A stretch of DNA of 64,000 nucleotides from an uncultured bacterium (GCA_964591275.1 CAZQAE010000012.1:4860-68859); one strand, 5' to 3'. Positions 5,703-62,134 are shown, numbered from the stretch's first letter. Made by a program: numbers and translations. The notes: generated from the letters alone by a model not told the origin.

Positions 5703-6024
5703 GTAATGGGTCCTTGTGAAATGGAAAACAAATGAAAAATCGAAGCGCCTTTACTTCATAATGTGTTTCGGAATTGGCGAAATTTGTTGGGGAACGGAAA
5801 CATTCTCGCGAACACGAGCGTCGCTCACGTAATCCGGTCAACGGCTTGTGGGAAGCAATCATGCTTTTTGCCGCCGGTAGCATTTGTTGGTGGCCCGATA
5901 CTCCGACCCCTTCGCGCACGAATTATAGGCCCTGTTTTTGAATTGGCAACCCGGATAAAACCGGTACAAAAAATAAAAGCGGGTCATATTGTCGCAACCT
6001 CTAAAAATACTATTGGCATTTCAA

Positions 6025-8442
6025 TTAATTATCTGAATCAAAAATCATTTCCACGACCGTGGCGCCGTCGCCGCCTTCGCCTCGCTCACCGGGCCGAAAG
6101 GATATTTCCCAAGGTGTTTCGGCGAGCTGTTTGCGCACTTCCTTTTTCAAAACGCCCGTGCCGTGGCCGTGGATGATGAAAACCTTTTCCCAGCGTTTGC
6201 GAAAGCTCATGTCGAGAAAGTCGCGAACCTGGTCCAAAGCGTCGTCGGCTCGTTGGCCGCGCAGGTCAAGGCTTCTGGCCGACAAACCAGTGGATTCGGT
6301 CGCCTCGTGGCTTTCTTGAAATTCGATTTTTGCCACGAATTTTTTTGCCGGTCTATCGCGCCGCACAAAGACATCCGCGCTGTCCATGGTCACGCGCATG
6401 CCTCCGACGATGACAATCACCTGCCCCTTGTCATTGGGGCCTGTCTCCAGCGCGGCATCGCTTTTCATGGAGCTTATGTATACGGAGGCGCCCTTTTTCA
6501 TCCGCGACCAGTCGCGAATCGGGGCGAGGGGAGGCCCGGTTTTTTTCTTTTCCGGCTCGGGCGTCGTACTTTTTACCTCTTCGACCACCCTGGCAATTGC
6601 CTCCCTGGTCACAATGGATTTCTTTTTGGACGGTCTTAATTTGACGGAGGCCACCGCCGTTTGGATTTCCTGGCGCGCCGCGTGATATTCGGCCTGAACC
6701 TTGACCATTTCCTTTTGCGCCACGCGTTCCTTGCGCCGCTCCAGATCGCGAACGATGTCCCGCTGTTTTTCCACCAGAGCCTGCGCTTCTCGTTTGGCCT
6801 CCTGCGCTTCACGCAGGCGAGCCGAAAGTTCCTGGTGCGTTTGATCGAGGCGATCCATCACTTCGTCAAGCTCTGAGCCAACGCCCTCGTAAAGCTCACG
6901 CGCCCGCTCAATAATTGACGAATCCAGTCCCATGCGCATTGCCACGTCAAAGGCTCCCGAACGCCCCGCAATGCCGATGCGTAGGCGATACGTTGGAAGC
7001 ATCTTCTCGCGGTCGAACTCCATGGAGGCATTCAAAAATCCCTGCCGGTTTGCCGCCATAGCCGCCAGTTCGGAAAAATGCGTGGTGACCAGAGTCCGCG
7101 CTTTCATGGCGGACATGCGTTCCAGAAATGCCGTGGAAAGAGCGATGCCCTGCCTGGGGTCGGTGCCTGAGCCGATTTCGTCCAGCAGGACCAGGCAACG
7201 CCCGTCGAGGTTTTCCATGATTCGCTTCAGAGCCGCGATGCGCGCCGCGAAGCTGGAAAGCCCCAGCTCAATGGACTGCGCGTCGCCGATCTCGGCGAAT
7301 ATACGATGGAAAAAAGCGACGACGGAATCCGGTCCGACCGGCGGGTGAAGTCCTGCCCGCGCCATGAGCGCGCAAAGTCCCACCGATTTGAGCAGGACCG
7401 TCTTGCCGCCGGCGTTCGGACCGGTGATCAAAAGGCACGACACCTCTGGATCGATCTGCACCGTATTGGGAATCACATCAATATCCTGCTGCGCCAACAA
7501 GGGATGGCGCAGGTCTTTGAGCAGCATTGCGCCGGTCTCATTGATTTCGGGTTCATGCGCGCCCAGGAAATCCGCGTAGCGGGCTCTGGCCAGCGCCAAG
7601 TCCACTTCCACCAGGGCCGCCACCGTGCGGCGCAACGCCGGACCGATCTTCGTGACGCGCAGGGAAAAGCCGGCGAGGATGCGATGGATCTCACGATCGA
7701 TTTCCAGTTCCGTGGCACGCAGTACGTTGTTGAGCTGCGTGATCTCCTTGGGCTCAATGTATAGCGACTGGCTGGTGGCGGAGATGTCATGAACGATGCC
7801 GTCCACCTTGCTCTGCTTTTCGATGCGAACCAGGAGAACGTAACGACCATTACGCATCGTGAAAAAATCGTCTTGCAGATACTCGGCCAGTTCCGGCTTG
7901 CCGGTCATGGTTTTCATGGTTTCGTAAATGCGACTGTGCGCCTTCTTATAGCGCCGACGCAATTCGGCCAGCTTGGGTGAAGCCGAATCGTTGACGGCGC
8001 CGTCCGGGTCGATGGCGGATTTGATCGACCTTTCCAGGCCTTCGTCTTCGTGCATACGCGCGGTGGGCTGCGCCAGAACGGGATAATCTTCCCATCGCGA
8101 CATCAAAATCAATCTGGTTTTGCGGGAAGCCGTGAGCACAGCCGCCACGCGCAGCAGTTCTTCAGGCGACAGGACGGCCTGCATCGCGGCGCGCGCAAGC
8201 TCGGCTTTCAAATCAACGACATCCAAAAGCGCCGGTTCGTCGCCCTCGATGATTAAGCGGCGTGCTTCGGAAGTTTGTTGTAAAGCCTTGCGCGCGGCAT
8301 CGGCGCTTTCGTGAAAGGCAAGTTTACGGGCCGCTTCGATTCCCACTTCGCTGGACGCAAATTCGGACAGCTTTTCCAGCACCTTCGACCATTCCAGCTT
8401 CGAAGCTGCCACATCCAGTATTTGTGTCTCTTGATTCATCAT
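6025..8442 (-). CDS. mutS2: endonuclease MutS2 (MutS domains + C-terminal Smr)
   Basis: Walker A ITGPNAGGKTVLLKSVGL with a MutS domain V; C-terminal Smr domain (KVFIIHGHGTGVLKKEVRK); 805 aa. Confidence 0.9.
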   Translation of the reverse strand: MMNQETQILDVAASKLEWSKVLEKLSEFASSEVGIEAARKLAFHESADAARKALQQTSEARRLIIEGDEPALLDVVDLKAELARAAMQAVLSPEELLRVAAVLTASRKTRLILMSRWEDYPVLAQPTARMHEDEGLERSIKSAIDPDGAVNDSASPKLAELRRRYKKAHSRIYETMKTMTGKPELAEYLQDDFFTMRNGRYVLLVRIEKQSKVDGIVHDISATSQSLYIEPKEITQLNNVLRATELEIDREIHRILAGFSLRVTKIGPALRRTVAALVEVDLALARARYADFLGAHEPEINETGAMLLKDLRHPLLAQQDIDVIPNTVQIDPEVSCLLITGPNAGGKTVLLKSVGLCALMARAGLHPPVGPDSVVAFFHRIFAEIGDAQSIELGLSSFAARIAALKRIMENLDGRCLVLLDEIGSGTDPRQGIALSTAFLERMSAMKARTLVTTHFSELAAMAANRQGFLNASMEFDREKMLPTYRLRIGIAGRSGAFDVAMRMGLDSSIIERARELYEGVGSELDEVMDRLDQTHQELSARLREAQEAKREAQALVEKQRDIVRDLERRKERVAQKEMVKVQAEYHAARQEIQTAVASVKLRPSKKKSIVTREAIARVVEEVKSTTPEPEKKKTGPPLAPIRDWSRMKKGASVYISSMKSDAALETGPNDKGQVIVIVGGMRVTMDSADVFVRRDRPAKKFVAKIEFQESHEATESTGLSARSLDLRGQRADDALDQVRDFLDMSFRKRWEKVFIIHGHGTGVLKKEVRKQLAETPWEISFRPGERGEGGDGATVVEMIFDSDN

Positions 8443-45284: not shown

Positions 45285-46214
45285 CTACTCTTCCAAGAAA
45301 TAATCCGAATCAATTTTTTTAATCTCGAAAGTGTTTTCCAAGGTGACGCCCAAGCTAAAATCGATCATTAGTTGAGCAAATTGATCGCCGTCAATTAGAA
45401 TGATCTTGTTTTCAATATCTTTAGCATAGTCTAATGCCTTCTGGGAAAACCTGGATGTGGTGATGAAGACGCCCTTACGCGATCGCTTGCCCTGTAATGC
45501 ACCGGCAAACTTCTGAATTTCCGGGCGGCTAACCGTGTGGTCCTTGTCCCACCTTTTTGCCTGAATGTAGATGATGTCCAATCCGAGGCGGTCTTGCTTG
45601 ATAACGCCGTCGATTCCTTCATCACTGACTTTGCCGATGGCTTGCCCTGCGTCTTTTATCGTGCCGCCGTATCCCATTTTCACAAGCAGTTCAACAACGA
45701 CATTTTCAAAAAATGTTGGCGAACTGGAAAGAACTTGGTCAAGAATTTCATCGGCCAAGGTTTTCCGAATATCCTGGTAGGATTCTCCAATCTGCTCAAT
45801 AGGAGTTTTTTCCGCATCGTTATCAACACTCGCGATATTTTCCGTTACGCCCCCTCCTTTTGCTCCTGGTTTTTTCGAACGGAATTTTTGGAACGAGGGG
45901 AAACGCATGAGATATTTTATGTTAATGCGTTCCGGGTTTTCTTTTACAACCTGAAGGCCCTGTTCTGTGATTAAAAAAACTCCTCGCCTGATGTTTTCAA
46001 CAAGCTTTGCTCTACTCAAATAGGCTTTTGTCCAAGCAACACGATTGGAGAAGGTGGACATCTTTCCGCTTGGAAGTTTTTCACTCAGTTCGTCTTTGGT
46101 GAGGTTGAAATGTTCGGCTAAAAGTTGCCGTGTTTCGGGCATTGTGTATTCCCGTCCATCGACTATCGTTTTCAAAAAGGGCATCATAATTGATTGAAAA
46201 TCGGGAATCGCCAT
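45285..46214 (-). CDS. mrr: Mrr-family restriction endonuclease (N-terminal winged helix + Mrr catalytic domain)
   Basis: MAIPDFQSIMMPFLKTIVDGREYTMPETRQLLAEHFNLTKDE is the Mrr_N domain; the C-terminal Mrr_cat domain carries the catalytic IYIQAKRW-type motif; low local GC. Confidence 0.75.
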   Translation of the reverse strand: MAIPDFQSIMMPFLKTIVDGREYTMPETRQLLAEHFNLTKDELSEKLPSGKMSTFSNRVAWTKAYLSRAKLVENIRRGVFLITEQGLQVVKENPERINIKYLMRFPSFQKFRSKKPGAKGGGVTENIASVDNDAEKTPIEQIGESYQDIRKTLADEILDQVLSSSPTFFENVVVELLVKMGYGGTIKDAGQAIGKVSDEGIDGVIKQDRLGLDIIYIQAKRWDKDHTVSRPEIQKFAGALQGKRSRKGVFITTSRFSQKALDYAKDIENKIILIDGDQFAQLMIDFSLGVTLENTFEIKKIDSDYFLEE

Positions 46215-46635
46215 CTGTTTCTCCTGCAAATTATTTGTAAAAAACCAAGGGATAATATCTACCACAAGGAACAGGAACAAGTCTATTAGCCATGGACCCT
46301 TGAGCGTGCAAATAAAATAAGTGCTAATTCACGCATGCCTCCTCAAAGCCCGCAGGGCGGTACAATAATAGCCGGCAGCGTTAGCTGCCGGGACGCCTTG
46401 TCACTCTCAAATTACACGAACTCCGAAGGAGTGTCACATCCATTTTAGACGATGCCTCGATCTTGGGAAAATGTTTGCTGAAAAACAGTTGAATTAGACT
46501 CCATACCCTAAACCCTGACCCCTAGCCCCTTTGCCCGGATGTTTGCATCCTGACTTTTCTTTTCAATAAAATGGACCTTTTACGCATTCGTGTGTATGTT
46601 TTCTTTCGTCAAAGGGTATTGCAAGCCCTGAAAAG

Positions 46636-51377: not shown

Positions 51378-51450
51378 AGGCGGGTAGCTCAGTTGGTAGA
51401 GCAACGGCCTTACACGCCGTGGGTCGCAGGTTCGAGCCCTGTTCCGCCTA
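51378..51450 (+). tRNA. tRNA-Val (anticodon TAC)
   Basis: Cloverleaf read by hand: acceptor AGGCGGG/TCCGCCT, D arm GCTC-AGTTGGTA-GAGC, anticodon arm ACGGC-CTTACAC-GCCGT, T arm GCAGG-TTCGAGC-CCTGT; the 5' A-T first pair is unusual. Confidence 0.75.
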
Positions 51451-55663: not shown

Positions 55664-56075
55664 GCTTCGAAACATCGCAGTGGGTCATTCAAGGAACCGC
55701 TAATGGACTCTAATGAACGCGAGTTGCTCTAAAAGAAGCGGTCCTTGGGGTGGTTGACTGTGCCATGGACGTTTTGAATCATCAATTTCAAGCGAGCCAA
55801 GCTGGAATGGAAACGAATTGTATTGAAAAACAAAAACCGTAAATAAGTTTAACTTTTAAGCGTCTCTTCGCGTTTATTAGCGGTTGAAAGAAATGGGAAA
55901 TGCTTTTCACAAATAGTGCAATTTTTCTCATTGCGCAGCCGCTTGTGAGCAAAATTATGCGGCAAAAAACTTCTGGATTCATTTGTGGCTACCGTTTATA
56001 CTGGCCGGGTGACAATTGGATTTCGGATTGAAACGCGCAAAGTATTTTGCGCCCAAATCACTTGCGGGAGGTTTT

Positions 56076-57003: not shown

Positions 57004-57642
57004 TCAATCAATTAATTGGCCATCGAAGCGCCAGAATTTCGCGTCGCGCATGCTCAATCCCAGGAGTTGCGTGCCGAAAGGTCCCAGTCGGACCACGCTG
57101 AGAGAGGCGTTGGCGACGTCGAAGAGAAAGAAGTGCTTTGAAAGGTTCATGTCCAAAAGTAGGCATAAGGCGGTGCGAATGACTCCGCCGTGGCAGACGC
57201 ACAGGATGTGCTGACCTTCGTGTTCCGCAATGATCTTATCGAAAACAACCCCGCGCACGCGCTGCGCCATTTCCGCCAGGCTCTCGCCGCCTCCGGGTCG
57301 CGTGTGCAAAGGGTCTTTCCGGAATTTCTTGAACATATCGGGCTGGCTTTTTACCAAATCCCGATAGTCCTTGTCCTCCCAGTCGCCGTAGTCCTGCTCA
57401 CGCAGATCGTCAAGGCGCTTGGCTGTTGGTTTTCGCCCTTCGCAGATGATGTTGCAGGTGTCGTATGCCCGCGACAGCGTGCTCGTGTATGCGGCGTCGA
57501 AATGCACATCCCTTGTTATCTTTGCCAGGCTCCGGGCTTGTTCGATGCCAAGCTCGGTTAAGGGACTTTCCGACTGCCCGCCGATGATGGAATCCCGATT
57601 GTGAATGGATTGCCCATGCCGGACGAAAAATATGTGTGTCAT
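57004..57642 (-). CDS. histidine phosphatase family protein (phosphoglycerate mutase-like)
   Basis: IFFVRHGQSIHN (the RHG motif) and ...VCHGGVIR; 212 aa. Confidence 0.75.
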   Translation of the reverse strand: MTHIFFVRHGQSIHNRDSIIGGQSESPLTELGIEQARSLAKITRDVHFDAAYTSTLSRAYDTCNIICEGRKPTAKRLDDLREQDYGDWEDKDYRDLVKSQPDMFKKFRKDPLHTRPGGGESLAEMAQRVRGVVFDKIIAEHEGQHILCVCHGGVIRTALCLLLDMNLSKHFFLFDVANASLSVVRLGPFGTQLLGLSMRDAKFWRFDGQLID

Positions 57643-57825
57643 TTCCTGAGTTTTCAAAAAACAGTCCTTTCATAAGCGATAAATAAACCTGGCGAAGGCG
57701 CGGCTTCCACGCGCTAGTTCAAAAGCATTTTAATATTTCCCGCAGAGTCGGTCAAATTCTTCACCATGGCATGCAGTCTGCCATGAATTTAACACCCTGA
57801 AGCGGTCCGATCACAAATAATTCTC

Positions 57826-57882
57826 TTGACAATTCCTGCCTTAGAGTTATGATAATTACAAGAGATGTATTTATAGATACAT
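57826..57882 (+). promoter_or_regulatory. consensus sigma70 promoter (TTGACA ... TGATAAT) plus 18 bp near-palindromic operator upstream of the XRE-ImmA gene
   Basis: ttgaca at 57826-31; gttatgataat at 57846-56; palindrome atgtatttatagatacat at 57865-82 lying between the -10 element and the RBS. Confidence 0.5.
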
Positions 57883-57909
57883 GAAGCCGAAAGAATAAAG
57901 GGAACTGCC

Positions 57910-59073
57910 ATGGGTAAGGAAGTCATTGCGCCAAATATCCGAAGGATTCGGTCGTTTAAGGGATTGACTCAGTCTAAAGTTGCCGAGGATGCCAGAATCA
58001 GTATTTCAGCATATCGAAAGATCGAAATCGGAAAGTCAGTCCCAAGAGCGGACACTCTTCAGGCTATTGCAGGCTCCCTGGGTGTAAATATCCAAAAACT
58101 TGTCGCCCCAATTCTAACTCTATCGGAAGTTCGGTTCCGTGCCCTGAAGAAGATGACTGCTCGTGAGCAAATTCTCGTCGATGTGGCGGCATGGCTCCAA
58201 AACTATAAGGAATTGGAGGCTCTGCTAGGTAGTGAAGAACTGTATAAGCTGGCAGGAGTAGTTGCTGATCTCCAACAAAATGGCCAGCTTTCGGATGATT
58301 CCTTTGAAGCGGCTATTCAGGTTGCCGGTAAGGCGAGAGAAGTTCTTAACGTGCACCCGGGCGAGGTTATTAGGGACATCTGCGGTTTGCTTGAGTCGGC
58401 AGGAATCAAAGTGCTTCCATATGATTTCACCAGCGACTCCTTTTTCGGTCTCTCTGTGGGTATTGGAGATGGCGGTCCCGCCATCGTTGTAAACATTAAC
58501 CGGCGTATGCCTGTTGAGCGATGGATATTCAGCGCCTTTCACGAGTTGGGGCACCTGCTTCTACATATGGACGCGTTCGACGTTAATAAAAGGGTGGAGG
58601 ATGACGCACAAGAAAAAGAGGCAAATCTGTTTGCCAGCTATTTCCTAATGCCTGATAACCTTTTTAAAAGCGAGTGGAAAAACGCCTATGGCCTCGGCCT
58701 AGTTCGAAGGGTTCTGAAAGTCAAACGTATTTTTAAGGTTAGCTATGGAACTGTACTACACCGCCTTATTGAGCATGGTGCAGACAAGTCCATCTGGGCG
58801 AAGTACCACTGGCAATTTAAGCAGATAACCGGTCGATCATTGGGAGGGAAAGTTGAGCCGCTTCCCATTGAGCCAAAAGAATTTGCCGAGGTCCGAAGTG
58901 CAGACGAAGCGGCCAACTTGTTGCCGGAAGATTTTATTCCCGATCGGCTGTACCGGCTCGTCCGTATTGCCGTTAATAAAGAAGTGATTTCTCTGAGCCG
59001 CGCTGCCGAGATTCTAAGGCTGGATCTCTCCGAAATGCGCGAGTTATCAAAATCCTGGGTTGATTGTGAATGA
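57910..59073 (+). CDS. XRE-family HTH + ImmA/IrrE (COG2856) zinc-metallopeptidase domain protein with C-terminal extension
   Basis: N-terminal HTH (LTQSKVAEDARISISAYRKIEIGKSVP); HExxH in FSAFHELGHLLLH; the gene is lower in GC than its surroundings. Confidence 0.8.
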   Translation: MGKEVIAPNIRRIRSFKGLTQSKVAEDARISISAYRKIEIGKSVPRADTLQAIAGSLGVNIQKLVAPILTLSEVRFRALKKMTAREQILVDVAAWLQNYKELEALLGSEELYKLAGVVADLQQNGQLSDDSFEAAIQVAGKAREVLNVHPGEVIRDICGLLESAGIKVLPYDFTSDSFFGLSVGIGDGGPAIVVNINRRMPVERWIFSAFHELGHLLLHMDAFDVNKRVEDDAQEKEANLFASYFLMPDNLFKSEWKNAYGLGLVRRVLKVKRIFKVSYGTVLHRLIEHGADKSIWAKYHWQFKQITGRSLGGKVEPLPIEPKEFAEVRSADEAANLLPEDFIPDRLYRLVRIAVNKEVISLSRAAEILRLDLSEMRELSKSWVDCE

Positions 59074-59584
59074 GATGCCAAAAAAATATTTGATCCTTGA
59101 TGCTAATGTCCTGATCGATTATTTCAAAAGCGATCCTTCGGTCCTCAAGCTTGTGTCCTCACACCTCGGTGAGTTGTTCGTTGCTTTGCCGGTTTTGGAA
59201 GAAGTCAAAGAGGCTGACCAGTCTCTTCTGGAGAGTTTTGGACTGGTGGTGGTCGAACCGGAGGTTGATGCTCTACTTGAGGCGGGAATGAAAAAGGGTT
59301 CTCTTTCCTTCCAGGATCGCATCTGCATTTTACTGGCAAAAGAAAACGGATGGAGTTGCGTTTCAAATGACAAACCACTGCGGCGGGAATGTGAAGCTGA
59401 AGGCATTCCCGTAATGTGGGGCTTGGAGATGATGGTATTGTTGGTAGCGGCAGGCAAGCTCGACCGAAATGCTGCCTTAGAAGTGGCCAACAAAATTCAC
59501 CAAGCAAATCCCAAATACATTGGAAAGGGGGTAGTCGAAGATTTCAAGATGAAAATTGGGTTCGAGAAAAAATGCAAAAAGTAA
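59060..59584 (+). CDS. PIN-like domain protein (DUF4411-type partner of ImmA/IrrE proteins)
   Basis: YLILDANVLIDYF is a PIN-like N-terminal acidic motif, with further conserved D/E positions; overlaps the upstream gene by 14 nt. Confidence 0.5.
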   Translation: MIVNEMPKKYLILDANVLIDYFKSDPSVLKLVSSHLGELFVALPVLEEVKEADQSLLESFGLVVVEPEVDALLEAGMKKGSLSFQDRICILLAKENGWSCVSNDKPLRRECEAEGIPVMWGLEMMVLLVAAGKLDRNAALEVANKIHQANPKYIGKGVVEDFKMKIGFEKKCKK

Positions 59585-59751
59585 AGCCGTGGCGTCAACC
59601 ACGGCTTCGGGTGAAACCACCCAGCCCGTCCTTGCAGGAGCAAGAGACTGACTATTCTGTAACAACACTGCAAGTTTAGTCCTGTTTTTTCCTCATCGTC
59701 AAGGGAAATAGGGTGGATTAACAGTTTGGCTCACGAAAAAGGAGACCATTC

Positions 59752-59880
59752 ATGGCTAAAGGTCCATCAAAAAAACAGGCATCGAAGGCAGGTCGTGTTC
59801 TCGCCAAGAATTCGTCTAGCAAGCCGAAGAAAAGCAAAGCTGGATCGATTCTCTCGCAAGTACGGCGCAAAGAGCGGTAA
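59752..59880 (+). CDS. small basic protein (42 aa), unannotated sORF
   Basis: ATG preceded by AAAGGAGAC; MAKGPSKKQASKAGRVLAKNSSSKPKKSKAGSILSQVRRKER (pI >11); below the 60 aa cutoff of the ORF track. Confidence 0.35.
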   Translation: MAKGPSKKQASKAGRVLAKNSSSKPKKSKAGSILSQVRRKER

Positions 59881-59914
59881 AAAGTCCTCCAGCAACTTGA
59901 AAAGGAGGCGAACA

Positions 59915-60127
59915 ATGATTCGTCAAAGAGTTTCATCATCGAATGTGGCGAATGTAGGCTACGATTCTCAATCACTTACTCTTGAAGTCGGATTCCACTT
60001 TGGAGGCGTCTATCAATATTACCGTGTTCCGATTAGCGAATACCGTAGACTGGTGGGGGCAGCATCTATTGGATCCTATTTGCACAACCACATCAAGGGT
60101 GTCTATTCCTATCGGCGCGTAGCGTAG
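59915..60127 (+). CDS. KTSC domain protein
   Basis: VSSSNVANVGYDSQSLTLEVGFHFGGVYQYYRVPISEYRRLVGAASIGSYLHNHIKGVYSYRR matches the about 60 aa KTSC fold consensus; AAGGAGG RBS. Confidence 0.75.
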   Translation: MIRQRVSSSNVANVGYDSQSLTLEVGFHFGGVYQYYRVPISEYRRLVGAASIGSYLHNHIKGVYSYRRVA

Positions 60128-60141
60128 TCCATTAATGCAGG

Positions 60142-60179
60142 AAACAGGCGGTGGGCATTTATCTGCCGTCTGTTTTTTT
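60142..60179 (+). terminator. rho-independent terminator after the KTSC gene
   Basis: aaacaggcgg-(loop)-ccgtctgttt followed by TTTTTTT. Confidence 0.6.
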
Positions 60180-60382
60180 CACTGGCAACGGCCAGTTATG
60201 GTTGTCTGAAATGCGTTTTATACTCCGAAAGAACCTTATCCCGGATTGAAATGAATGACCCAATAAGAATTTCGACACAACGAATTCCTCAATTATGGAA
60301 AAATGAAGGGGTAATTTAGACAAAATAGGATCCAATTGCAGATTTTTGGTGGAGAACTTCGATAGATGATAATCGTTTTCGC

Positions 60383-62134
60383 CTATCGAATCAGTCCGAA
60401 GAGGAAGGGATCGGTGCTTTGCGGGGCGGTAAATTCCAATATGGCTTCGGCCCAGTCGTTTTTCCCGTTGATGAGCCTGATCCATCCGGCATCGTCGCTG
60501 CTCGATCCATAATGAATCACCTGCATTTCAGGAATGTTGTCCTCGTCGAAATCCCAGAGGCTTCCGCGAAACGCGGCGCCGGCAATGAAATCGGTGTCGA
60601 AAGCGATGGAGGGCCCCAGATCATCGAACACGGCAATGCGATGATGATAATATAGGTCAGCGAGCTCTAGGTAGTGCGTGGATATGGTCGCCAGTTCCGC
60701 CATGTCGTCGCCGTCGAAATCCCGAAGCACGGCGCTAAGGCGCAAATGTTTATTATCTCCATCCCCGGCCAGGCCGTCGAAGGTCGCCGCCGGTCCTTGC
60801 TTCGGATCGGCATACAGTTCAATGGACGCCGGACCGCCCTCCTCGTAGTTTTCCTGACTGACGCCGAAAACCGGTTCCATGCTACCGAAGCTTGCCGCGC
60901 CGATCAGCCCGTCAGGCCGGGTCTGGCCGATCAGATCAATCCTGTCGCCTGTGGCCTCGAAGCGCGTCGCCATCACGTAACCCTCGCCGGATAGATAAAT
61001 GTCGATAAAAGAAAAATCGTCATCGCCCGGGGGATTGGCCATGACAACCAGATCGGACTGTTCGTCATTGTCCAGGTCGTAACGAAAGCTCACCTGCGCG
61101 GAAGTCTCGGCCGGATAAACGAAAGTCCGCTTGGGGGCGCCGAAATTGTCCATGATGAGATAAACGACGGTTTGCGCTTCCTGCTCAAGGGCCAGAGCGA
61201 TTTCCGGATCGCCGTCCCGGTCGGCGTCCGCCGTCGCCGCGGAAAAGGCCCCTGCGCGCCTGAGAGTATAAGGGCCGATTCCGCTAACGGTTTCGCCGTC
61301 CAGGTTCACTGCGTTAAAGCTCACATCGGGCGCGTCGCCCGCGCGATCGTAAACCGCCGTCAAAAACTCCTGGCCCTTGAGGCCGGAAAAGTCTCCCGGT
61401 CCGATCCAGGCCGAACGAACCGGCAGCCCGAGCAGGTCGATAACTTTTCCCGGCGGCGCTGAAATATCCCATAGATCAACGTAGTCCGCGCTTCCGTCAA
61501 AGGCGTGCAATGCGCCGCCTTGATCCCCTGTGGGCCTGACGCGGACGATGAGTTCGGGGATTCCATCGCCGTTTATGTCGGCGTTGGGACCCAAAAAAGC
61601 CTGCGCGTCTTCGTAAGCGCCCAGGATTCTTGAGGACGCCAGGCTTTGCGCGTCGAGTAGAACAACTTCCGATTCGCTGTCGCCCGCCAGACTCATGCTG
61701 ATCCAGGAGACGACGATCTCTGCTTTTCCGTCTCCGGTGAAATCCTCAACCGATATCCAGGCGGTTCCTATTTCCCCAAGTTCTTTTATTTCGCCGACGC
61801 GCCGCACCTCGCCGGAAGGCGACGCGATCAATGAAATCTGCGCCCGGCTGCCCTCATCGGCTATCCATTGCGTCATGGCCAGGGCAAACTTCTCATCGCC
61901 GTCGTCCACTTTGGCCGGAACGAAAAGGAATTGATCCACCGCAACCTCGTCATCGTCGTTGTCGTCATCTGAATCGTCGTTTAGGTCGTCATCAATGGCG
62001 GTATCGTCGTCGGAGTCATCATCCTCGGCGTCGTCATTGGCCTTTGAATCATCATCGTCGCCGCAGTCGCATCCAGCCTGCGTGATGAGCATGAGTAAAA
62101 ATAAAGCGAGAAATATCGTAGTCCATTGGCGCAT
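60383..62134 (-). CDS. secreted lipoprotein with poly-Asp linker and FG-GAP/VCBS-like beta-propeller repeats
   Basis: LITQAGCDCGDDDDSKANDDAEDDDSDDD...; repeated DxDGDGxxE motifs (DFTGDGKAEI, DINGDGIPEL, DADRDGDPEI, DFDGDDMAEL). Confidence 0.55.
   Translation of the reverse strand: MRQWTTIFLALFLLMLITQAGCDCGDDDDSKANDDAEDDDSDDDTAIDDDLNDDSDDDNDDDEVAVDQFLFVPAKVDDGDEKFALAMTQWIADEGSRAQISLIASPSGEVRRVGEIKELGEIGTAWISVEDFTGDGKAEIVVSWISMSLAGDSESEVVLLDAQSLASSRILGAYEDAQAFLGPNADINGDGIPELIVRVRPTGDQGGALHAFDGSADYVDLWDISAPPGKVIDLLGLPVRSAWIGPGDFSGLKGQEFLTAVYDRAGDAPDVSFNAVNLDGETVSGIGPYTLRRAGAFSAATADADRDGDPEIALALEQEAQTVVYLIMDNFGAPKRTFVYPAETSAQVSFRYDLDNDEQSDLVVMANPPGDDDFSFIDIYLSGEGYVMATRFEATGDRIDLIGQTRPDGLIGAASFGSMEPVFGVSQENYEEGGPASIELYADPKQGPAATFDGLAGDGDNKHLRLSAVLRDFDGDDMAELATISTHYLELADLYYHHRIAVFDDLGPSIAFDTDFIAGAAFRGSLWDFDEDNIPEMQVIHYGSSSDDAGWIRLINGKNDWAEAILEFTAPQSTDPFLFGLIR

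Follow-up and report, generated by a model that had tools for sequence, protein, structure and literature searches.

A repressor-metallopeptidase fusion and its PIN nuclease partner as a probable toxin-antitoxin-like cassette in an uncultured bacterium

Introduction

What does a gene for an XRE-type DNA-binding domain fused to a metallopeptidase do when it is placed directly ahead of a gene for a PIN-domain nuclease? This question is raised by a block at positions 57826-60179 of a 64-kb stretch of DNA from an uncultured bacterium (GCA_964591275.1, CAZQAE010000012.1:4860-68859; 64,000 nucleotides (nt), the whole of which is referred to as the window). The block holds four genes on the + strand, i.e. 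gene 1 (an XRE helix-turn-helix, HTH, with an M78 metallopeptidase), gene 2 (the PIN nuclease), a small open reading frame (sORF) and a gene for a KTSC-domain protein. A reading made earlier from the sequence alone, here called the original prediction, described it as a low-GC, presumably horizontally acquired toxin-antitoxin/defence-island module, driven by a near-consensus promoter with a palindromic operator and closed by a terminator, and every feature that was claimed for 57826-60179 is present in the sequence at its coordinates.

Based on analyses of the two core proteins, of homologous loci in other genomes and of one relative, L004, we propose that the core of the block is probably a mobile, autoregulated two-gene cassette of the XRE-M78/PIN class, resembling a toxin-antitoxin pair and serving in stress response or defence. 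The proposal follows from the domains and folds of the two proteins, their intact catalytic motifs, their pairing across phyla, the asymmetric decay of the PIN gene, and the defence and plasmid contexts in which the pair occurs.

Results

Gene 1 combines an XRE HTH with an M78 metallopeptidase

Gene 1 (57910-59073, + strand) encodes 387 amino acids (aa), and its description as an XRE HTH fused to an HExxH ImmA/IrrE metallopeptidase is borne out by Pfam profiles above their cut-offs for both halves: HTH_3 and HTH_19 match aa 9-65, with HTH_3 scoring 39.2 bits against a cut-off of 23, and Peptidase_M78 matches aa 193-286 (E 4.7e-17, 62.4 bits against a cut-off of 22). The HELGH motif lies at 58540-58554, and the glutamate of the EAN motif, E237, is encoded at 58618-58620. 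Full-length homologues with about 50% identity number more than 2020. Throughout the family alignment the HELGH..H, E-x-E-A-N and post-HTH V-R-F-R-A motifs are invariant; in 30 sequences E212, G214, H215, H219, E235, E237 and A238 do not vary at all, and H211 is kept in at least 90%. Among the models of PADLOC, 14 for RmrA match gene 1 (E 1.3e-26 to 2.3e-16), as does phrog_2439 (E 1e-39).

In the AlphaFold2 (AF2) model of gene 1, which has a predicted local distance difference test (pLDDT) score of 85.6, the chain closes with a three-helix bundle that runs to the protein end at aa 387. Foldseek searches with this model return CapP (7t5t, E 4.4e-4), followed by IrrE (3dte/3dti) and PprI (8sln) at E 1-2e-3, where the matches to IrrE and CapP have a probability of 1.0 over 157-180 aligned columns only. 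DdrO and the N-terminal domain of CapH are found as well, and among solved structures the HTH is nearest by sequence to DdrO. Judged from these likenesses, gene 1 is best described as a predicted single-chain repressor-plus-protease of the RmrA protein type, composed of a DdrO/CapH-like XRE part and an IrrE/CapP/ImmA-like M78 part.

The V-R-F-R-A motif (aa 74-78, 58129-58143, + strand) deserves separate mention. Its V74-R75-F76-R77-A stretch is predicted to form a beta strand about 10 residues past the HTH and is akin to the F-R site at which CapH is cleaved; three of four distant phage RmrA-like homologues have a comparable R[FL]R. By analogy, the motif is a candidate cleavage site within gene 1, which we regard as a lead and not as a result.

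Gene 2 encodes a predicted PIN nuclease of the COG2405-DUF3368-like branch

Gene 2 (59075-59584, + strand), read from an ATG at 59075, encodes 169 aa. The original prediction had called it PIN-like and, further, a likely DUF4411 partner of COG2856 proteins. The first assignment holds, with PF01850 matching at 26.2-26.4 bits against a Pfam cut-off of 23.6 and being matched by 25 of 27 family members at E<=0.1. The second was rejected, as the DUF4411 profile (PF14367) detected neither the window protein (E<=1) nor a single one of 26 homologues (E<=0.1). Acidic residues are found at D9 (59099-59101), E43 (59201-59203), D81 (59315-59317) and in the N98-D99 pair (59366-59371); across the 27 aligned sequences D9, E43, D81 and N98 never vary, and at least 90% have D99. 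Detectable homologues number 85, with lengths of 160-175 aa.

The AF2 model of the PIN protein (pLDDT 92.9) displays a helical C-terminal extension of about 60 aa. Foldseek places 1o4w first and 2mdt second, followed by 1y82 and VapC (3tnd), all with a probability of 1.0, and 2mdt is the COG2405/DUF3368 representative according to Matelska et al. (PMC5499597). The protein carries weak precomputed DUF3368/COG2405 tags, too. Taken on its sequence and predicted fold, gene 2 appears to be a PIN nuclease of the PF01850/COG2405-DUF3368-like branch with an intact acidic active site.

How the two genes meet was less accurately described before. The reported 14-nt overlap is true only for the longest ORF, which extends over 174 aa from a TTG at 59060 (59060-59584, + strand). 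The ATG at 59075 is instead favored by how public databases call the gene (169 aa), by where 26 homologues begin and by the intergenic gaps at 70 homologous loci, so that translation of the PIN protein most probably starts 1 nt past the gene 1 stop codon.

The pair is kept together across phyla and the PIN gene decays alone

A genome scan with the PIN alignment as query, using one genome per species in a collection that does not include the window's species, returned 73 loci spanning Gammaproteobacteria, Myxococcota, Acidobacteriota, Bacillota, Planctomycetota and others. In about 70 of the 73, the PIN gene is immediately preceded, in the same orientation, by a homologue of gene 1 in full length (E 1e-80 to 1e-130), the gap between the two being mostly -1 to +20 nt (70 loci), and no intact PIN gene without gene 1 was encountered in the 70 loci checked. 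A reciprocal check starting from three gene 1 homologues found a PIN/DUF3368 gene of 162-174 aa next to each, in contexts of IS605/IS66 elements, an integrase, or plain metabolic genes. The pair is also present on a Methylomagnum plasmid, in-between a type I restriction gene and parA. With pairing this consistent, the earlier claim that the XRE-M78 and PIN genes form a tightly coupled module of the recognised COG2856-Xre/PIN toxin-antitoxin/defence class is upheld.

The integrity of the two genes differs across these loci. Of the PIN genes at 70 loci, 49 are intact and 2 run into a contig end; in about 15-18, roughly one locus in five, the gene is disrupted after 35-110 residues by truncation, a frameshift or replacement. 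At every locus with a decayed PIN gene (among them L057, L059, L060, L062 and L066-L075, with the PIN position at about 6000-6500 of the respective locus), gene 1 is of full length. Such one-sided loss is the pattern expected of a toxin accompanied by its neutraliser.

Defence genes adjoin many homologous pairs, whereas the window pair stands alone

In other genomes, defence genes are often found around the pair. When the nearest neighbours were sampled from 20 loci, a defence gene adjoined the pair in at least 9, including those for DrmA (E 1e-252), a CBASS cyclase (1e-97) and GajB (5e-256), as well as AbiD, E1-E2/JAB and BilD ThiF-type proteins, PDC-S02 and an HNH nuclease. Taken without selection, 119 ORFs from downstream and 102 from upstream of the pair add GajA, HEC-01A, Old/AriA-like ATPases, a type IIG restriction-modification enzyme, mad3/mad6, PD-T4-6 and MkoA. 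In five loci (L042, L044, L026, L046 and L069) drmA is located 3' of the pair on the same strand, abutting the PIN stop codon in L042 (5995-10126) and L044, and in L013 (5998-7723) it is the CBASS cyclase gene that abuts the PIN stop codon. Hence, larger defence operons appear to be headed by the XRE-M78 and PIN pair in these genomes.

In the window, by contrast, the neighbours of the block are housekeeping genes (for a malic enzyme, a His-phosphatase and an FG-GAP protein), and the pair appears as a solitary insertion among them. The designation as a defence-island module is consequently correct for homologous cassettes, which are often found in defence islands, and not for the window locus itself.

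These neighbourhoods bear on a different explanation, in which gene 1 is a fused CapH-CapP-type, damage-responsive switch for downstream genes, for DISARM, CBASS and the like in other genomes and for the sORF and KTSC gene in the window, and the PIN protein is the first effector or an accessory that is not directly inhibited by gene 1. The drmA and CBASS arrangements are as this explanation would have them, CapP, IrrE, DdrO and CapH top the Foldseek list for gene 1, and gene 1 remains intact where the PIN gene has decayed, e.g. in L069, where drmA is still downstream. Conversely, the window and L087 each have the pair with only housekeeping genes around it, as would befit a self-sufficient unit, and a pure regulator would have no need of a PIN gene that is coupled to it stop-to-start at practically all loci. 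The asymmetric loss of the PIN gene is furthermore a classic toxin signature, and CapH/CapP pairs have been described as divergent from their cargo operon, whereas the pair is co-directional here. We consider a role as regulator only to be possible but rather doubtful; it and the toxin-antitoxin reading are not mutually exclusive.

The promoter carries a candidate operator

A sigma-70-type promoter precedes gene 1 on the + strand, with TTGACA at 57826-57831, a 16-nt spacer and TATGAT at 57848-57853, agreeing with the consensus at 11 of 12 positions, in line with its earlier description as near-consensus. The 18-bp palindromic operator that had been proposed is located at 57865-57882 (ATGTATTTATAGATACAT) and was recovered by a pattern search as ATGTAT-N6-ATACAT; each half of this imperfect palindrome pairs at 8 of 9 positions, and the site represents a candidate operator of the XRE domain. 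Counted from the predicted transcription start, it extends from about +6 to +23, and the 64-kb window has a single occurrence of the pattern where 0.05 would be expected.

Two comparisons address the regulatory role of the site. In the relative, L004, the -35 and -10 elements and the outer 6-bp arms of the palindrome are unchanged, in a stretch upstream of gene 1 where identity is otherwise down to 71-79%. Inverted repeats that lie within 100 nt 5' of the start reach, over 60 homologous loci, a mean score of 5.1, compared to 3.97 in shuffled sequences, and scores of at least 7 occur in 27% of the loci compared to 8.6% of the shuffles; many of these repeats have TGTAT/ATACA-like arms. The suggested autorepression is plausible on both counts, and repression of the operon by the gene 1 protein through the candidate operator is a reasonable inference from the sequence. 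A 14-nt inverted repeat around the promoter (I8, 57815-57828 and 57859-57872) was dismissed, as it is not conserved in L004.

The base composition suggests a foreign origin of the block

As noted in the original prediction, the block is AT-richer than its flanks. Its GC content is 0.471 and that of the window 0.526; a value this low is reached by only 0.8% of stretches of equal size. The GC content at third codon positions (GC3) is 0.43-0.51 for the four block genes and 0.627 +/- 0.06 for 46 other ORFs. A foreign origin of the block is argued by this composition.

Horizontal acquisition, as claimed earlier, is a putative reading of this composition. In the sole relative that was found, the block occupies the same site and has diverged to the same degree as its flanks. 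L004 is 90-93% identical to the window at the nucleotide level over 15 kb with the same gene order, and the identity is 88-95% inside the block and 87-92% outside. No direct or inverted repeats of at least 10 nt flank the block at its borders, and no mobility genes were found. Relatives that lack the block were not found either, a metagenome scan with the flanking His-phosphatase yielding only homologues of 28-48% identity. If the block was acquired, it entered before the lineages of the window and L004 split.

The same comparison could be taken to mean that gene 1 is a native, vertically inherited stress regulator of the IrrE/DdrO kind, with an incidental low GC content and a PIN protein that serves as a housekeeping RNase. 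Synteny and flank-like divergence in L004 agree with this, as does the nearness of the HTH to DdrO. The GC3 values are, however, more than two standard deviations below those of the other genes, the taxonomic distribution of the pair is patchy and its contexts are mobile, the PIN gene is frequently decayed in other genomes, and the 64-kb window offers no second operator site. Native inheritance is in our view very improbable.

Other parts of the window vary in composition or content. At 6429-6858 of its locus, L004 has an additional PDDEXK_3 gene together with a 33-aa ORF, in-between the malic-enzyme gene and the next gene, where the window has only a low-GC spacer (0.42) at about 55664-56016; this is a second variable spot, 2 kb away. 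The ORFs at 313-798 and 45285-46280 have low GC and GC3 values (0.41/0.37 and 0.43/0.48, respectively), comparable to those of the block, and may be further foreign genes.

The downstream genes are passengers of one lineage

Beyond the PIN gene, two adjacent GC-rich hairpins begin within its stop codon and extend over 59584-59622. They have a folding energy (dG) of -23.9 kcal/mol (z -5.1) and are identical in L004; no U-tract follows on the + strand, and a T-rich tail is present on the - strand. Possible roles are those of an attenuator, a 3'-end stabiliser or a minus-strand terminator. The idea that they form a repetitive extragenic palindromic (REP)-like repeated element was discarded, since the structure is unique in the window. 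A sigma-70-like promoter on the + strand was not found in-between the PIN gene and the sORF, and transcripts of the pair may extend over the hairpins to include the sORF and KTSC gene.

On the opposite strand, a weak promoter-like site (TTGACG-18-TAAACT, 59702-59673) retains its anchor bases in L004, and for a minus-strand RNA of about 90 nt over the 3' end of the PIN gene (region 59575-59702) three hairpins are predicted (dG -41.9 kcal/mol, z -5.3). Such an RNA could be an antisense small RNA, or the signal could merely reflect the hairpins. Searches against Rfam families gave nothing significant in 57600-60450 and, over the whole window, only a tRNA at 51378-51450.

The sORF (59752-59880, + strand) encodes a lysine-rich protein of 42 aa. 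That it is a real gene, as originally claimed, is supported by its match to phrog_5079 (E 3.7e-6), by the conservation of its frame in L004 and by the gene calls of the Joint Genome Institute (JGI) and ENA, which include it. The strong ribosome-binding sites that had been noted are likewise present, with AGGAG 7 nt before the ATG of the sORF and AGGAGG 5 nt before the KTSC start. The protein consists of one copy of a unit of about 37 aa with the motif S-x-AG-x-x-L ... SS ... S-x-AG-S-x-L-x-Q-x-R. A word-index protein search found the sORF alone and tblastn against phages found nothing, but an exhaustive HMMER search identified two remote relatives, P0212 (81 aa) and P0213 (161 aa), with two tandem units each, which match phrog_5079 at 4e-20 and 2e-9. 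The sORF looks like a single-repeat member of the small repeat-protein family phrog_5079.

The KTSC-domain protein (59915-60127, + strand, 70 aa) is encoded inside a longer ORF (59726-60127), and its assignment is confirmed by PF13619 (E 2e-20; 72.6 bits, with the cut-off at 25; the profile is matched over its full length, from position 1 to 58). The protein matches phrog_3292/8113, and its homologues occur in 29 phage records without fixed neighbours. KTSC has been called DNA-binding in one paper (PMC9503650). Both downstream genes were considered as conserved third and fourth components of the cassette and rejected as such: they adjoin the pair only in the window's own lineage (L001, L002 and L004) and in none of 73 other cassette loci, and 80 viral KTSC loci have no sORF-like upstream peptide and no XRE-M78 neighbour. 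Hence, the sORF and the KTSC gene are lineage-specific downstream passengers, which, by analogy to the DISARM and CBASS genes behind the pair elsewhere, may be co-transcribed cargo.

The phage families among these matches call to mind a remnant of a prophage or integrative element, with gene 1 as part of an ImmR/ImmA-like immunity module and the PIN gene, sORF and KTSC gene as leftover 'moron' genes. Such a descent is in keeping with the phrog matches of the sORF, KTSC protein and gene 1, with the phage homologues of KTSC, with distant gene 1 homologues that adjoin integrases in Gordonia phages and with the low GC content. It is contradicted by the finding that neither the 2.6-kb block nor its immediate surroundings contain an integrase, att-like repeats or further phage genes, and by the occurrence of the pair in about 70 non-prophage contexts. 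In addition, all four genes are under purifying selection relative to L004, with ratios of nonsynonymous to synonymous substitution rates (dN/dS) of 0.14 for gene 1, 0.28 for the PIN gene, 0.20 for the KTSC gene (94% aa identity) and 0.42 for the sORF (86% aa identity), the last value deriving from only 12 substitutions and being weak evidence. A phage remnant is a quite improbable origin.

The block ends with an intrinsic terminator (60139-60179, + strand), in agreement with the clean terminator originally predicted. A long stem is followed by T7 (dG -22 kcal/mol, z -3.7), and the stem is kept in L004 with differences confined to the loop.

Several further features surround this terminator. 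The convergent intergenic region at 60125-60283 is about 98-99% identical to L004, compared to a background of about 91%, and exceeds the neighbouring coding DNA; on the minus strand the intergenic region 60128-60385 has no fold (z +0.2) and no Rfam match. A conserved ORF of 32 aa with a GTG start (60151-60249) overlaps the terminator. A perfect 14-nt inverted repeat (ATTGGATCCTATTT at 60068-60081 and AAATAGGATCCAAT at 60323-60336) brackets it, with one arm in the KTSC coding sequence and the other in intergenic DNA, of which L004 keeps only a 10-nt core around GGATCC.

Discussion

Proposed mechanism

We propose that the cassette would operate as follows. In the resting state, the gene 1 protein would bind to the palindrome just 3' of the -10 element, holding the operon at a low level, and, as suggested by the genetics of the family, would keep the co-translated PIN ribonuclease inactive. 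Upon a signal of stress or infection, the peptidase would inactivate the repressor/antitoxin, probably through cleavage of the linker that follows the HTH. The operon would then be derepressed and the PIN nuclease freed or over-produced, likely leading to cleavage of RNA and arrest of the cell.

A number of observations weigh against this toxin-antitoxin-like interpretation. In several genomes a larger defence operon has the pair at its head, an arrangement that suits a regulator as well as a toxin and antitoxin. The search pattern was placed at the PIN N-terminus and is blind to gene 1 homologues without any PIN remnant, and some of the PIN 'pseudogenes' may be errors in the assembly of metagenome-assembled genomes. 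The PIN protein has no PADLOC match at E<=1, RmrT models included, so standard tools would not call the pair RosmerTA. As far as found, the literature has no experimental study of the subfamily with about 385 aa followed by about 165 aa. Finally, gene 1 is without a C-terminal GAF domain, and no GAF-like beta-sheet is seen in the secondary structure of the AF2 model; this domain forms half of the groove that senses single-stranded DNA in IrrE and CapP (PMC13228613).

A more elaborate scheme may be drawn by analogy, tentatively and as a possibility that we think is rather unlikely to apply in full. Gene 1 would be a LexA-like, single-chain version of CapH and CapP, with V-R-F-R-A as a built-in cleavage or pseudo-substrate site like F82-R83 of CapH. 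The trigger would have to be sensed differently, as gene 1 is without the GAF domain and its groove for single-stranded DNA, and might possibly be perceived via the bound PIN protein. The cassette would then be a portable switch for infection or damage that frees a nuclease and turns on the cargo behind it, which would be DISARM, CBASS and the like in other genomes and, in the window, the phrog_5079 peptide and the KTSC protein as a minimal effector cargo.

Relation to known systems

The two-gene cassette that we favor for the window has been approached from several directions. Fusions of COG2856 and Xre domains were linked to PIN/RelE toxins by Makarova et al. in 2009 (PMC2701414), and 'three-component' systems of HTH, DUF955 and COG2405/DUF4411/PIN_14/20/26 were described by Matelska et al. 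in 2017 (PMC5499597), one of them, from Geobacillus, having an HTH-DUF955 fusion followed by a COG2405 PIN. The pair shares the architecture of these computationally predicted modules, i.e. an XRE HTH-HExxH M78 fusion followed on the same strand by a PIN protein of about 165 aa, and differs in not being the DUF4411 variant.

In comparison to VapBC, the PIN fold, the four acidic residues, the antitoxin-first order, the translational coupling and the promoter palindrome are common. The partner here is, in contrast, an enzyme-repressor fusion of 387 aa and not a small labile antitoxin of the RHH/AbrB/Phd types, and the PIN protein has the helical extension at its C-terminus.

The anti-phage RosmerTA system has a counterpart to gene 1 in its antitoxin. 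Association of the ImmA-domain hub antitoxin with PIN-like domains was reported by Ernits et al. in 2023 (PMC10440598), and rmrA could not be deleted (PMC10440598; bioRxiv 10.1101/2022.05.11.491447). Like RmrA, gene 1 is of the HTH and Zn-peptidase 'antitoxin' type with an exchangeable toxin partner. The antitoxin gene comes first in the window, whereas phage homologues have the toxin first, and none of the validated RmrT toxins is a PIN nuclease: they depolarise membranes or have no assigned function.

Structurally, each half of gene 1 is matched best by the repressor-protease switches CapH/CapP, IrrE(PprI)/DdrO and ImmR/ImmA (PMC13228613; PMC10904395), which have the same zinc site; some CapP proteins also have a cysteine-switch loop. 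CapH is cut at F82-R83, and an invariant F-R is located about 10 residues past the HTH of gene 1. Different from these switches, gene 1 merges repressor and protease in one chain, does so without a C-terminal GAF domain and has the PIN protein as an obligatory partner. A 'CapH-CapP fusion + vapC-like' pair was noted at DISARM operons by Lau et al. in 2022 (bioRxiv 10.1101/2022.04.27.489752).

In conclusion, the architecture is already described (Makarova 2009, Matelska 2017, Millman 2022, Ernits 2023, Lau 2022), and the window, a well-preserved but ordinary case, adds no new principle to it. What is exposed is a large and uniform subfamily of more than 2000 gene 1 homologues with about 50% identity, each with a COG2405-like PIN protein. 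Single-chain, GAF-less and obligatorily tied to a nuclease, such a protein would make a compact model for studying how M78 peptidase 'antitoxins' are triggered. The subfamily bridges the literature on RosmerTA-type toxin-antitoxin systems and that on CapH/CapP-type switches of defence operons, which are usually kept apart.

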